Part shown: positions 471-44,211 of the stretch, piece by piece
Position numbering within the stretch: the first letter of the stretch is position 1
Layout: the number at the start of each line of letters is the position of its first letter
Sequence record: PZ496580.1
DNA length: 64,000 nt
From: a phage
Strand: one strand, 5' to 3'
Notes under the pieces: generated by a model
What the model saw: only the letters and a program-made list of their open reading frames with translations
Database searches by the model: none
What the model was told of the DNA's origin: nothing
Position numbers and translations under genes: made by a program

Positions 471-2522
471 TTACATTTTAAATTTATCTGGCATTGCGTC
501 TACAGATACCAGATCAGCGATAAGCTGACGTAGAGTTGCCTTATCTGCTTTCTTACGTTCGGTTTTAGCTTCGGTAATGAAGCTGGAGAAAGAAAGGTCA
601 GAAGCAGGTTTAACAACACCTTCACGGATGAATGCATCACCGTCCGCGATCATCTCGCCAGATTCTTGTAATGCTGCCAGTTCATTTTTGTTCATAATAT
701 GTGCCTCAATGTAATAAGTTTCTTGTGAATCCGTTGATGCCGTAGCACGAGTTACCGTATCAAAGGATAACACAACACCGCGAGGAAGTAAAATCTCGCA
801 TTCTTTGTAAGCAAATGCCTTGTTACCTACTGGCAATACAGGGATGTTTTCCGCGCCAGCGATAGAGAAAGCAACATTAGCGCCACCTTCACCGCGAGAT
901 CCCGCCATAGAATCAACACCAGCAACGGCACTAGCCACGTTTGCATTCCACCCACCAAAAATATTAGGTGCAAGGGAAGTGCTCACATAGTTTTTAAAGT
1001 AAAACGCTTTTTGCTTACGTGCAGTTTCCCACATTTGAGACCGGAAGTCCATACCACGATACAGAATAGTACCAGGATCAAGTTTAACGCCATAGTTAGA
1101 GAAGGCATTATCCAGTGCATCACACATCTTGACCAATTCTTCTGGGTCTGCGATGCCATCAAACTCTTCCAGCTTACGATCGGTTAGGAAGTTGTTCATA
1201 TTGATGTATGCTGCATCGGCATATTCGCTCAACACAAAACCTTCCGCGCCAGGCAGGTCAAGATCAATATCTGCCATCATTTCACCCATGTTGCTAGCAA
1301 TTGCTTCAAACATACCGGAAGCAACATTACGCAGGGCATCGGTTTTAATCTGCGTGATGTGACTACGAAGCATTTCAGCTTTTACATCTGCTGGCATAGA
1401 CTGGTCTACTCGATCCATTGCTAAGGCAGTGATCTTGTTTTCGAATACTTCCTCGTTCATGATTTCTTTTAAGCGTTTGATTGATGCTGCGATAACTTCC
1501 GCAGACAACGGATCATATTGATCCTGAACTTTTACCAGTTCGCTTACTGCGTATTTTGCATCGGCCTCGCTTTCAAAAATAGTACGCATGAAACCATAGC
1601 GAGTGATAATATCACTTGTCCAATCATTCAGAGAACGCGCGGTTGAACGTTCTAAGGCTTGACGGTCAATCAGAGTATTAAACTGTTTCTTAGGTTCGGC
1701 TTCGGTGATATCTTCTTCCGGTTTAAGATTAATTTTTTCTGGATGATTCACATAGTCGCTGTTATAGGTCGCTTGAGTTTTCAGCATTTCTTCTTTAGTC
1801 AAACGAGATTTAGCCGCTACGCGTTGTTCTGCTTCCGCGTTTCGTTCTTCTTCTGACACAAGACTAGCCGCATACGCTTCATCTTTAGTCAGAGATTCGC
1901 CAGTAGCCTTAGATACCCAGCGATCACCTAAATCACTTTCTACTTTAGTGAACAAGGATTCATCAAGTTTAATCCCTTTAATCTTATCAATCGCCATCCC
2001 GCGACGTTTGACAACAACTAAAGCGATCTTTTTGCTGGTCATTACTTCCTGCTGGAATACTTCAAACTTCGGTGTACGACGCACCAAACGCTCTATAACG
2101 CGCTTAACCAGTTCGGTCTTACCTTTCATGCGGGATACGTTAAAACGGAACATAACAGCGTCTAATTGCGCTTTACGGGCTGTTTCCATAACCACATCAA
2201 AAGCACTTGCCATAACTGCAATCGGGTTATCGCCTAGACCATTTTTAAGCTGTACAATACGACCGCTTTTGTTCATTTCGCACAGTACAACATGTGCGGT
2301 CTTGTCACCCATACGAATGATTTTAGGTGTTTTGTTGGTGAAGTTACAAAGACGGACAATCACATCTTTATCGCGTGTCTGTACTGCAAAAAGCTGTTTA
2401 GGATTCTGCTTAGGCTTTAAGCACTGTACCGGGGCAATACTGCCAAAGTTTTCTTCCTCTTCTGTCAACAGCCATTTCTCGAAAGATTCAATCATTAGAT
2501 CGTCGATTTCTAAGTTAAACAT
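471..2522 (-). CDS. alt: Alt-like ADP-ribosyltransferase (virion-packaged RNAP-modifying enzyme)
   Basis: 683 aa (T4 Alt ~682 aa); C-terminal region has R (LYRGM), STS (YVSTSL) and ExE (KECEI) ART signature; sits after gene 30 as in T4. Confidence 0.7.
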   Translation of the reverse strand: MFNLEIDDLMIESFEKWLLTEEEENFGSIAPVQCLKPKQNPKQLFAVQTRDKDVIVRLCNFTNKTPKIIRMGDKTAHVVLCEMNKSGRIVQLKNGLGDNPIAVMASAFDVVMETARKAQLDAVMFRFNVSRMKGKTELVKRVIERLVRRTPKFEVFQQEVMTSKKIALVVVKRRGMAIDKIKGIKLDESLFTKVESDLGDRWVSKATGESLTKDEAYAASLVSEEERNAEAEQRVAAKSRLTKEEMLKTQATYNSDYVNHPEKINLKPEEDITEAEPKKQFNTLIDRQALERSTARSLNDWTSDIITRYGFMRTIFESEADAKYAVSELVKVQDQYDPLSAEVIAASIKRLKEIMNEEVFENKITALAMDRVDQSMPADVKAEMLRSHITQIKTDALRNVASGMFEAIASNMGEMMADIDLDLPGAEGFVLSEYADAAYINMNNFLTDRKLEEFDGIADPEELVKMCDALDNAFSNYGVKLDPGTILYRGMDFRSQMWETARKQKAFYFKNYVSTSLAPNIFGGWNANVASAVAGVDSMAGSRGEGGANVAFSIAGAENIPVLPVGNKAFAYKECEILLPRGVVLSFDTVTRATASTDSQETYYIEAHIMNKNELAALQESGEMIADGDAFIREGVVKPASDLSFSSFITEAKTERKKADKATLRQLIADLVSVDAMPDKFKM

Positions 2523-2874: not shown

Positions 2875-3393
2875 TTAGTTATTTTTTAATTGCTCATCTT
2901 GCAATAGGGCAATCACATGCTGGCGATGTTCTTCCGATTGAGGCACACCGAAAAAGTTTGTTTTGTAGAAATACTCTAATCGGTCTTCTCGTGTGCTCTC
3001 TTCCATCATGATCGCTGGTAGACCAAGATTGCGGAAACGTCGCTTTTCTGCTGGCGTAAAATCGCTGTAATACAGCATAGAATCATCATTACCAGCAATG
3101 CTAAACTCATCCTTCATGAAGGAGAATATTGCGTTTAAACGCTGTTTACCGTCCACGATTTCGATCTCATAGCGAGAGCCATCATCAATCTTAGCCATTG
3201 CGATAGCGCCTACCGGAAAATCATTAATCAGGTTTTCGATAAACATACGTTTGTTTTCTGTGTCCCATACCAAAGGACGCTGATAATCTGGGTTCATGTT
3301 GATATAGCCATCTTCTAACCATGCTTCGTAAACAGAGATGACAAAGTTTTTAGTATTGGTATAGTAACGGCGTTTAGGCGTTAAACGGTTCAT
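2875..3393 (-). CDS. DUF262 / ParB-Srx-like nuclease-NTPase domain protein
   Basis: 172 aa; DYQRPLVW ... DGKQRL motifs match the DUF262 N-terminal signature; ATGA overlap with upstream small ORF. Confidence 0.5.
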   Translation of the reverse strand: MNRLTPKRRYYTNTKNFVISVYEAWLEDGYINMNPDYQRPLVWDTENKRMFIENLINDFPVGAIAMAKIDDGSRYEIEIVDGKQRLNAIFSFMKDEFSIAGNDDSMLYYSDFTPAEKRRFRNLGLPAIMMEESTREDRLEYFYKTNFFGVPQSEEHRQHVIALLQDEQLKNN

Positions 3394-3569
3394 AATGTGC
3401 TTACCTTTTCAATATATGCGTCCGCATACTGGCGAATGCTCATTTCTTCTCGTACTGCTGCTACAAATTCTTTCATGGATTCAAACCATTTGTAGGTGTC
3501 GCGATACATGACCAACTCTTCCCAAGTAAGATCGCAAATCTCTTTACCGTGTAGTTGTGGTGTTATCAT
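3390..3569 (-). CDS. hypothetical small protein (59 aa, below ORF-track cutoff)
   Basis: ATG overlaps stop of zinc-ribbon gene (ATGA) and its stop overlaps the DUF262 ATG (ATGA); AGGAGAA SD. Confidence 0.4.
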   Translation of the reverse strand: MITPQLHGKEICDLTWEELVMYRDTYKWFESMKEFVAAVREEMSIRQYADAYIEKVSTL

Positions 3570-3901
3570 AATATAGTTCTCCTGAATGGATCATCACGTA
3601 AATCAATATCTTTTAAGAACTCATCCCATGAATGGCGGATATTGTTCTTAATTCTCCAGATAAGCGCAGGGATTGAACGCTCACCCATCTGGAAGTAAGG
3701 ATCATATGATCCGTATGCCCAATATGCTACTACAATTCCACAATCAGCGCAATAGTATTCTATCTCGCTTGCTGGCGACCAAAGTCCATCAATATGATCG
3801 GTGATCTTGCTTTCAATGTTATGACTATGGCAATTAGGGCAACGTATGCAATGACCTTGTTTATCGTAATTTGACGTTAGAGAATACTTAAACAATCTCA
3901 T
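3566..3901 (-). CDS. zinc-ribbon protein (CxxC..CxxC)
   Basis: 111 aa with CIRCPNCH and CADCG cysteine pairs; translationally coupled to the upstream methyltransferase-like gene. Confidence 0.45.
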   Translation of the reverse strand: MRLFKYSLTSNYDKQGHCIRCPNCHSHNIESKITDHIDGLWSPASEIEYYCADCGIVVAYWAYGSYDPYFQMGERSIPALIWRIKNNIRHSWDEFLKDIDLRDDPFRRTIL

Positions 3902-4617
3902 TATAGATCCTTATTGGCTTCAAATACTGCCTTTGCGAATCCTCGCGGGGTAAGTGACCTGATAGTCTTTGTTCTGGTTCCTTTCCCGCCTAGCTTAGAA
4001 TGCTGTTTGCTGTACCCTTTATTAATCGGCAACGGTTTCTTTTCTGGCATTATAAAGCCTTGTCCGGTCCACAAGCAAGTCTTTTTCGGGTACATATCAC
4101 GGGAGGCAATATACTCAGGAAACGTAGGATGTATATCATCTTCCGGCAAATAACCGCCATATTCCCACGGATGGAACATGTAATCAGGCTTACGCCACAT
4201 GCTAGAGATAACGCTTACAGGATTCTCTATCATGTAGGGAACTCCTAGCCATTCACCCAAATAAGCGGTTATTTTAGCTGCCCTTACATCATGAATTTGA
4301 ATTAATGGTCCTTGCTCTCGTTTCTTTCGTTCAAAGTGTGCAGCGCCACTAACAGCTAAATTGGTGCATGGTGGGAATGCAAATATAATATCCGGTTTCC
4401 CCCATTCAAGGTCCATTGCTCTTTCCAGCCAGTTCAAATCAATCCATGTGTTTACATAGGTAATGTTTGGATGTTCAAATCGGGTATTATATTTTTTGTA
4501 TGTACCGTGGTCGCCATCGTCAGCATTAAAGCAGATCACCTTATGACCTGCTTTAGCCCATTCTAGCCCCATTATCCCCGATCCGTCAAAGTTGCAGAAT
4601 ATTAATTTTTGTTTCAT
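3901..4617 (-). CDS. minimal C5-cytosine methyltransferase-like protein (no target-recognition domain)
   Basis: 238 aa; motif I-like FCNFDGSG, motif IV-like FPPCT (Pro-Cys nucleophile), motif VI-like ENP; much shorter than canonical DNA C5-MTases. Confidence 0.4.
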   Translation of the reverse strand: MKQKLIFCNFDGSGIMGLEWAKAGHKVICFNADDGDHGTYKKYNTRFEHPNITYVNTWIDLNWLERAMDLEWGKPDIIFAFPPCTNLAVSGAAHFERKKREQGPLIQIHDVRAAKITAYLGEWLGVPYMIENPVSVISSMWRKPDYMFHPWEYGGYLPEDDIHPTFPEYIASRDMYPKKTCLWTGQGFIMPEKKPLPINKGYSKQHSKLGGKGTRTKTIRSLTPRGFAKAVFEANKDL

Positions 4618-4859
4618 ATACGCCCCTTTAACCCAACACAGATTTTAGAAGGTTCTTTACCGTGCCACATTAAGTAAAGTCCGTTAGTGCGGCCTTGTTT
4701 TGTATATGATTCTTTTCTAATCTTCTTATAGTGTCGTGCTTCCTCAACCGATTGTTTAGAATACCAATCATAAAGGAAGATGAACAAAGGCCAACCATTA
4801 GCGGCCTTAATGCAGTTATTAAGAAATTCCTTATTGCGTTTAATTAATTTTCTTTTCAC
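4614..4859 (-). CDS. hypothetical protein (81 aa, basic)
   Basis: ORF track; overlaps neighbours by 4 nt at both ends (coupled). Confidence 0.4.
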   Translation of the reverse strand: MKRKLIKRNKEFLNNCIKAANGWPLFIFLYDWYSKQSVEEARHYKKIRKESYTKQGRTNGLYLMWHGKEPSKICVGLKGRI

Positions 4860-5107
4860 GCTGCCCCCGTTGGTTTGATAGTAACAGAATCTAAAAGACC
4901 TTTGTTAGCCAGTTCGCGGCAAGTTTTCAGATCCGCAACTTCCCAGCCAGCCGCAATCAGGTTATCAATCAGGCTGTTAGCAACTTCTTCGCTCATGAAA
5001 GAGCACTGTTTGCCGATGGTGTAGCGTACACGCTGTAATTTCAGTTTACGGAAGCCTTTAACGTTCAGGTCTTTAGCGATTTTCTTTGCGGTTTCGATGT
5101 TAGCCAT
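4856..5107 (-). CDS. hypothetical protein (83 aa)
   Basis: ORF track; ATG follows conserved leader and AGGAGAATC SD downstream of promoter cassette. Confidence 0.5.
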   Translation of the reverse strand: MANIETAKKIAKDLNVKGFRKLKLQRVRYTIGKQCSFMSEEVANSLIDNLIAAGWEVADLKTCRELANKGLLDSVTIKPTGAA

Positions 5108-5147: not shown

Positions 5148-5176
5148 ATTATAGGGGATGGTGTCTCCCCTGTCAA
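5148..5176 (-). promoter_or_regulatory. sigma70-type early promoter cassette
   Basis: approx; TTGACA-17-TATAAT, GGGGA..TCCCC palindromic spacer. Confidence 0.55.
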
Positions 5177-5391: not shown

Positions 5392-5420
5392 ATTATAGGG
5401 GATCTCCCGATCCCCGTCAA
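5392..5420 (-). promoter_or_regulatory. sigma70-type early promoter cassette
   Basis: approx; TTGACG-17-TATAAT. Confidence 0.5.
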
Positions 5421-9147: not shown

Positions 9148-9176
9148 ATTATAGGGGATCACCGATCCCCTGTCAA
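9148..9176 (-). promoter_or_regulatory. sigma70-type early promoter cassette
   Basis: approx; TTGACA-17-TATAAT, spacer GGGGATCGGTGATCCCC identical to cassette at 2838..2866. Confidence 0.6.
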
Positions 9177-10295: not shown

Positions 10296-10324
10296 AGTAT
10301 AGGGGATCGGTGATCCCCTGTCAA
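10296..10324 (-). promoter_or_regulatory. sigma70-type early promoter cassette
   Basis: approx; TTGACA-17-TATACT; GGGGATCACCGATCCCC spacer. Confidence 0.5.
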
Positions 10325-20985: not shown

Positions 20986-21014
20986 ATTATAGCGGGGATT
21001 TCTCCCCGCGTCAA
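20986..21014 (-). promoter_or_regulatory. sigma70-type early promoter with hairpin in spacer
   Basis: approx; TTGACG-17-TATAAT, spacer GCGGGGAGAAATCCCCGC doubles as terminator-like hairpin after nrdA. Confidence 0.5.
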
Positions 21015-44182: not shown

Positions 44183-44211
44183 ATTATAGGGGATCTGCGA
44201 TCCCCTGTCAA
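44183..44211 (-). promoter_or_regulatory. sigma70-type early promoter cassette
   Basis: approx; TTGACA-17-TATAAT, GGGGATCGCAGATCCCC spacer. Confidence 0.55.

Follow-up and report, generated by a model that had tools for sequence, protein, structure and literature searches.

Why would a T4-like phage encode, in a single tightly packed operon, a very small cytosine-C5 methyltransferase (C5-MTase), a zinc-ribbon protein and a DUF262 protein, and do these proteins work together? The question is raised by a stretch of phage DNA of 64,000 nucleotides (sequence record PZ496580.1, called the window below), in which six open reading frames (ORFs) lie on the minus strand from position 5107 to position 2875. 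An earlier reading, made from the letters of this DNA only (the sequence-only reading), had taken the six ORFs for a possible modification or anti-restriction module of a T-even phage and did not recognise the combination as described. The window was found to belong to an RB49-like phage (genus Krischvirus, family Straboviridae), with 95–99% identity along its entire length to more than 55 deposited genomes. Many of these carry annotations as Dcm, DNA methyltransferase or DUF262, and the C5-MTase homologue of the RB49 group has been noted in print (PMC8056088), so the genes are not new to the record. The explanation that we favour, and hold to be reasonably probable, is an early accessory-gene cassette bounded by mobile promoter-early stem-loop (PeSL) elements in a Krischvirus hyperplastic region, which holds an orphan C5-MTase and an independent DUF262 protein, both of known kinds, and which would not be a new modification system.

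The rival with the closest bearing on this is a functional anti-restriction module. In such a module, 5-methylcytosine (5mC) marks would let the phage evade Type II-like restriction, and the DUF262 protein, maybe with the zinc ribbon, would neutralise Type IV enzymes that read 5mC (the GmrSD/BrxU family, NsnA), for example as a decoy through heterodimerisation dependent on nucleoside triphosphate (NTP). Partners were sought within 5 kb of the methyltransferase homologue in 80 viral loci. Relatives of the zinc ribbon, the DUF262 protein or the 83-aa protein of the first ORF stood beside it in two loci, both of Krischvirus, and were missing from all 78 others, which speaks against a coherent module as it had been proposed. 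Outside Krischvirus the neighbours were mostly helicase/primase genes (SNF2/DnaB-type helicases) and unrelated small ORFs, consistent with a DNA-directed enzyme, and no Vsr or nuclease family was among the recurrent phage neighbours; Vsr or a restriction partner would have spoken for a role on DNA.

The other two genes were likewise found apart from the methyltransferase. Short DUF262 proteins with 35–38% identity occur in RB43 (Pseudotevenvirus; locus L089, 4971–5507), in Slopekvirus and in Enterobacter phages, phT4A being a further case (L090, 4980–5507). In RB43 and phT4A the gene has a different neighbourhood with no methyltransferase within 5 kb, and the whole RB43 genome contains no member of the 238-aa methyltransferase family. 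Three metagenomic phage contigs with a distant short DUF262 gene had no methylase of that family nearby, and there was none within 4 kb of the zinc-ribbon relatives in phages SSBI34, FritzHoffmann and SUSP1. A point for the module is found in Erwinia phage Hena1, whose short DUF262 gene (L091, 5001–5516) has a ‘DNA methyltransferase’ gene 0.9 kb upstream. This methylase was rejected as a member of the 238-aa family, being an NPPY amino-methylase of another class. As far as the comparative data tell, it is only in Krischvirus that the methyltransferase, the zinc ribbon and DUF262 are neighbours, as an outcome of modular shuffling and not as a conserved multi-component system. The genes are best read as independently mobile, one an orphan compact C5-MTase and the other an effector-less DUF262 NTPase domain.

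The boundaries of the operon support its description as a cassette. The single promoter proposed in the sequence-only reading was confirmed at 5148–5176 (minus strand) as a PeSL-type early promoter, with TTGACA and TATAAT separated by 17 nt that contain a GGGG...CCCC stem-loop. Read from 5176 to 5148 it matches the sigma-70 consensus at 12 of 12 positions, and a consensus scan found no internal site above 10/12 within the operon. A second 12/12 promoter at 2866–2838, also on the minus strand, lies just past the last stop codon. This downstream PeSL cassette combines a stem-loop (attenuator/terminator), which ends the operon, with the promoter of the next gene. The stem-loop is present in the spacer of both flanking promoters, with fold z-scores of −2.9 (5148–5176) and −3.1 (2838–2866). 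In the window the promoter/stem-loop pattern has seven copies against none expected by chance, all on the minus strand (2838–2866, 5148–5176, 5392–5420, 9148–9176, 10296–10324, 20986–21014 and 44183–44211), and the copies at 2838–2866 and 9148–9176 are identical in sequence.

In RB49 and phi1, PeSL elements have been described as acting both as promoters and as terminators, and as mediating the shuffling of accessory genes as modules (Arbiol et al. 2010, PMC2839356). The operon resembles the PeSL-bounded ORFan cassettes in the hyperplastic regions of those phages in having a consensus early promoter with embedded GC stem-loop on both flanks, and in the whole-ORF insertions and deletions that separate close relatives; in phage SAP the PeSL at the end of the cassette is duplicated. 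It differs from them in holding six genes where those cassettes hold one ORFan, and in that its two internal indels, those of the 59-aa and 81-aa ORFs, have no PeSL flanks of their own. Directly downstream is a gene for an Alt-like ADP-ribosyltransferase of 683 aa (471–2522, minus strand), annotated as alt in phage GEC-3S. The cassette is therefore placed in the early/internal-protein hyperplastic region.

Within the operon the junctions are, in order, GTGA, ATGA, TAATG, ATGA and ATGA. The chaining by ATGA/TAATG overlaps that had been described thus holds for four of the five, the first being GTGA. The common promoter and the translational coupling speak for a module, as does the fact that about 57 Krischvirus genomes have kept the four core genes. 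Tight stop/start overlaps are, however, usual in the early regions of T4-like phages, and therefore say little about cooperation. The set of six genes, present here as described, is not fixed among relatives. The second ORF (81 aa; 4614–4859, minus strand), whose GTG start overlaps the preceding stop, belongs to phrog_7065, a family without assigned function. It is dispensable, since a 242-bp deletion has removed it from the Krischvirus contig L005. The fifth ORF (59 aa; 3390–3569, minus strand) is a variable insertion of 177 bp (3402–3578), present in phages kaaroe and FL04 and missing from GEC-3S, TB34 and the contigs L004 and L005. No significant Pfam, PHROG, NCBIfam or PADLOC family was found for it.

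The third gene (3901–4617, minus strand) encodes the 238-aa protein, which falls in phrog_757, ‘DNA methyltransferase’, with E 9e-91, an orphan methyltransferase of phage type. Its sequence link to solved C5-MTases is weak. A phmmer search of the single protein against PDB sequences gave no match, a family profile gave E 0.6–1.5 over motifs I–IV only (M.HaeIII, E 0.62), and hhalign to M.HhaI, with a comparison sequence identical to 10mh_A, returned a probability of 3% with the alignment confined to motifs I–IV. In all these weak alignments, nevertheless, motif I coincides with FDGSG and the Pro-Cys motif IV with FPPCT, and 18 of 26 homologues matched Pfam PF00145 at E≤1, the best with 1.3e-6. 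Because the direct sequence link is weak, the assignment had to draw on the fold as well. The 238-aa protein showed the two-subdomain fold of C5-MTases, which aligned with it over 180–196 residues versus about 120–145 for generic Rossmann methyltransferases. Among its structural relatives, the orphan phage C5-MTases of PHROG 757 being part of the PF00145 superfamily, the nearest were the catalytic domain of DNMT3A/3B, the prophage methyltransferase 3g7u and M.HhaI.

Conservation was assessed in an alignment of the 26 homologues, which have 55–64% identity. The motifs reported earlier, I, IV and ENP, are all present and invariant. Motif I is formed by F10, G12, S13 and G14, aligned with FSGAGG of M.HaeIII and FAGLGG of M.HhaI, and motif IV by P82-P83-C84-T85, aligned with PPCQ and FPCQ of the same two enzymes. 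E131-N132-P133 closes a predicted strand (128–132) and corresponds to motif VI, its equivalence to ENV being by fold position. An equally invariant IRSLTPRG (R220–R225) resembles motif IX (RxLTxRE). No variable target-recognition domain (TRD) was found between motifs VIII and IX, in agreement with the sequence-only reading, but the position is not empty as that reading had it: a short and highly conserved insert occupies about residues 150–213. Compared with typical C5-MTases the protein is thus small, with a near-invariant insert in place of the TRD, motifs VIII and X that are not recognisable and a score under the Pfam gathering threshold. It is a compact, catalytically complete-looking cytosine-C5 methyltransferase.

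The methyltransferase family is large, phage-restricted and usually solitary. In a large protein collection 7,329 homologues were found, nearly all of 225–260 aa, and the family is present in 1,521 of 50,697 phage records (about 3%), including Krischvirus, Klebsiella and Escherichia siphophages, rV5-like myophages and phages of Campylobacter, Vibrio and Arthrobacter. Among 185,579 species genomes of bacteria and archaea there were two fragmentary loci. ‘Dcm’, ‘DNA methyltransferase’ and ‘C-5 cytosine DNA methylase’ are widespread annotations of family members; in the literature searched, no experimental characterisation or proven methylation product of any member was found. In one phage contig of about 140 kb (L043, 4810–5001) and two similar loci, the start of the gene for the mini-methylase is overlapped by a different zinc-ribbon ORF of 63–87 aa, which has a weak match to the Lar restriction-alleviation family (E 0.006) and no detectable kinship to the zinc ribbon of the window (BLASTP E 0.1).

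What could such an enzyme do in this phage? The sequence-only reading had assumed a T-even phage with modified cytosine, which would have no use for a C5-MTase. Krischvirus is pseudo-T-even and reported to have plain cytosine. RB49 has neither a dCMP hydroxymethylase nor a glucosyltransferase, and its DNA is treated as unmodified (PMC4041780). Among T4-like phages, only one with plain cytosine offers a valid substrate to a C5-MTase, because in DNA with hydroxymethylcytosine (hmC) the C5 position is already substituted; the argument of the sequence-only reading points in the opposite direction. Anti-restriction would be the most likely function of the methyltransferase.

A number of findings weigh against this reading of the locus. 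The 238-aa protein itself scores 13.5 bits (E 0.048) with PF00145, whose cut-off is 22. From the sequence, motifs VIII (QxRxR) and X (GNxV) cannot be recognised, the only candidates being W141-R142 for the former and N235 for the latter. The insert at the TRD position hardly varies among phages whose hosts are very different, an unusual trait in anti-restriction methylases with sequence specificity, and in the BASEL study phage C5 and N6 methylases were not linked to restriction resistance in Drexlerviridae. HpaII and NheI, both sensitive to 5mC, cut RB49 DNA (PMC4041780), and no modified nucleoside was detected in the Krischvirus TB34 by high-performance liquid chromatography–mass spectrometry (HPLC-MS) (PMC13390438). 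Finally, the translational coupling and the four retained core genes are compatible with some cooperation. From the restriction and HPLC-MS results it follows that methylation, if there is any, must be sparse and spare both CCGG and GCTAGC; 5mC confined to a few specific sites would probably be missed by bulk HPLC. The unmodified look of the virion DNA would also be accounted for if an enzyme with the C5-MTase fold had another substrate than phage DNA, be it RNA (as in DNMT2-like tRNA methylation), host DNA or a substrate at the nucleotide level. This explanation we consider quite unlikely.

A puzzle is posed by phage SAP. Its genome is 99.96% identical to that of TB34, and a 2026 paper reports 5-hydroxymethyldeoxycytidine (5-hmdC) and alpha-glucosyl-hmdC in its DNA without a recognisable hydroxymethylase or glucosyltransferase homologue (PMC13390438). 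The operon might then belong to a cryptic post-replicative route of cytosine hypermodification that is the source of these nucleosides, with the C5-MTase-fold enzyme installing the C5 carbon unit. The 238-aa protein is the only candidate for a C5-directed enzyme seen here, and a post-replicative route of C5-methyltransferase, TET dioxygenase and glycosyltransferases is known in other phages (Burke et al. 2021, PMC8256090). The operon is like the clusters of that route in placing a phage C5-MTase amid small accessory genes, with a possible post-replicative path to modified cytosine. It is unlike them in lacking the other enzymes: no TET/JBP dioxygenase or glycosyltransferase domain was found in the six ORFs with Pfam, PHROG and NCBIfam, the authors of PMC13390438 report neither in Krischvirus, and the DNA of RB49 and TB34 is reported to be unmodified.

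Upon comparison of SAP with TB34, the coding sequences of the methyltransferase, the zinc ribbon and the DUF262 protein proved identical, so TB34 has the same three genes and yet plain cytosine. Of the very few differences, the only sizeable one at the locus is that SAP has the PeSL cassette, with the last DUF262 codons, duplicated in tandem over 79 bp (L002, OZ034687.1, 1855–1933). The duplication lies directly after the DUF262 stop, just downstream of position 2875 of the window, and makes up most of the 112-bp difference in genome length; the other differences at the locus are a few intergenic indels of 1 nt. With coding sequences identical, the locus differences were rejected as the cause of the SAP modification. 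Total replacement of cytosine would moreover need a non-specific enzyme, which is contradicted by the HpaII and NheI sensitivity of RB49 DNA, and the family is present in about 1,500 phages that are not known as hypermodified. A mixed lysate would be the simpler explanation for SAP, and we regard the hypermodification route as highly improbable. It is very unlikely, too, that the 238-aa enzyme is other than a conventional site-specific DNA methylase, either with another substrate (host tRNA, host DNA or the nucleotide pool) or as part of a conditional cytosine-modification/anti-Type-IV module of Krischvirus with the zinc ribbon and DUF262, possibly behind the hmC and glucosyl-hmC of SAP.

The last gene of the operon (2875–3393, minus strand) encodes a single-domain DUF262 protein of 172 aa, with the ParB/Srx-fold NTPase domain of GmrSD-type proteins. 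Pfam GmrSD_N (DUF262, PF03235) matches residues 26–122 with E 4.1e-20 and 73.2 bits against a cut-off of 33.2. Of the profile matches by which the sequence-only reading was to be checked, that to DUF262 is significant (E 4e-20), while that to PF00145 did not reach its cut-off and the 238-aa protein is placed among the C5-MTases by fold and by weak, consistent matches to motifs I–IV. In PADLOC the 172-aa protein matched the N-terminal parts of NsnA (E 1e-20, positions 47–188 of 385) and PD-T4-2_A (E 5e-12), and GmrSD-like profiles. Y37-Q38-R39..V42-W43 and D81-G82-K83-Q84-R85-L86 are invariant in seven homologues. In the ParB-type NTPase domain the QR..W and DGQQR motifs serve nucleotide binding (PMC12065111). 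An AlphaFold2 model of moderate confidence (predicted local distance difference test score 71) was compared by Foldseek with known structures, and matched Noc, ParB, KorB, PadC, DndB and BrxU with probabilities up to 1.0, E values of at least 4e-3 and template modelling scores of about 0.4.

Pfam gave no second domain for the protein, whose chain ends at residue 172. Both the ParBDB DNA-binding domain and the DUF1524 His-Me finger nuclease are lacking. The protein is therefore not a GmrSD-type restriction enzyme, and of the nuclease/NTPase domain that had been suggested, the NTPase remains, with its invariant DYQR and DGKQR, and the nuclease does not. The ParB-type NTPase domain with QR and DG(Q/K)QR motifs is shared with the Type IV enzymes GmrSD, BrxU and SspE and with Menshen NsnA. 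The 172-aa protein differs from these in the absence of the ParBDB helical domain and of DUF1524 and in a C-terminal NFxGVPQSEEH motif of its own, which is family-specific and invariant in the short DUF262 proteins (seven homologues). The Menshen partners, the ABC-ATPase NsnB and the effector NsnC, are absent, no ATPase or nuclease family having been found in the other five ORFs with Pfam, NCBIfam and PADLOC. Another difference from the DUF262 defence proteins is that the gene is carried by a virulent phage and not by a defence island.

These properties also bear on the anti-restriction module. In GmrSD, SspE and BrxU it is the DUF262 domain that senses modified DNA (PMC12065111), and a protein with intact NTP-binding motifs from which every effector domain is missing fits the part of a decoy. 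Against this, 5mC was not detected in the DNA of RB49 and TB34, which perhaps leaves nothing for Type IV enzymes to read. Together with the unlinked relatives of all three genes, this makes the module unlikely in our estimation, and the cassette of independent genes is preferred.

In an exhaustive representative search, short stand-alone DUF262 proteins (155–190 aa) were found to make up a populated family, beside which a second architecture, of about 255–290 aa, is also common. This one has the DUF262 core at its C-terminus, after some 125 aa of N-terminal region without Pfam match (P0145, P0152, P0157, P0163). Beyond the T-evens, the T4-like genera of RB43 (reported without hmC) and Slopekvirus have the short form, as does one phage of the Vequintavirinae, and NFxGVPQSEEH is common to all of them. 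Judged by match counts per organism, it is apparently absent from the T-evens with hmC.

The zinc ribbon named in the sequence-only reading was recovered in the 111-aa protein of the fourth gene (3566–3901, minus strand; CxxC...CxxC), with a Pfam match to Zn_Ribbon_TF below the cut-off (E 1.3e-4). It belongs to phrog_2993 (E 1e-33), which has no assigned function. NCBIfam gave sub-threshold matches for this protein and nothing for the five others. Relatives were found in Nonagvirus, Felixounavirus/Suspvirus and Vequintavirinae phages. In SUSP1 (L100, 4001–4270) the gene is directly upstream of those for dihydrofolate reductase and thymidylate synthase, and in FritzHoffmann (L099, 3962–4270) about 1 kb from a dUTPase gene; these two phages are mutually unrelated, and both zinc-ribbon relatives lie in nucleotide-metabolism/replication neighbourhoods. 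The first ORF of the operon (83 aa; 4856–5107, minus strand) has no Pfam family, is conserved in Krischvirus and falls in phrog_14908, likewise without assigned function. A weak PADLOC match (E 2.5e-5) was seen to the C-terminal segment (722–785 of 938) of the defence reverse-transcriptase profile RT_UG35.

Under the favoured explanation, as the sequence shows, all six genes are transcribed by the host sigma-70 RNA polymerase from the promoter at 5176–5148, and the stop/start overlaps couple their translation. The methyltransferase, using S-adenosylmethionine and Cys84 as the nucleophile, would then, after replication, methylate a limited number of cytosines in the unmodified phage DNA, and may act as an orphan anti-restriction methylase, as is thought for T4 Dam and other phage orphan methylases. 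The 172-aa protein could be an NTP-dependent switch or a DNA-associated accessory or anti-defence factor, independent of the methylase.

With this locus the orphan phage methylases and the DUF262 proteins, both known kinds, each gain a further member. It also corrects the view that a C5-methylase would be useless to a T4-like phage. Short effector-less DUF262 proteins occur in RB49 and RB43, both reported without hmC, and in Slopekvirus; if they are decoys for DUF262-based defences, they would add to the catalogue of anti-defence proteins. The 238-aa family is unusually small and might yield a very compact C5-methylase tool. As it has about 7,300 homologues and is found in some 1,500 phage genomes, thousands of gene annotations would be settled by knowing what it acts on.

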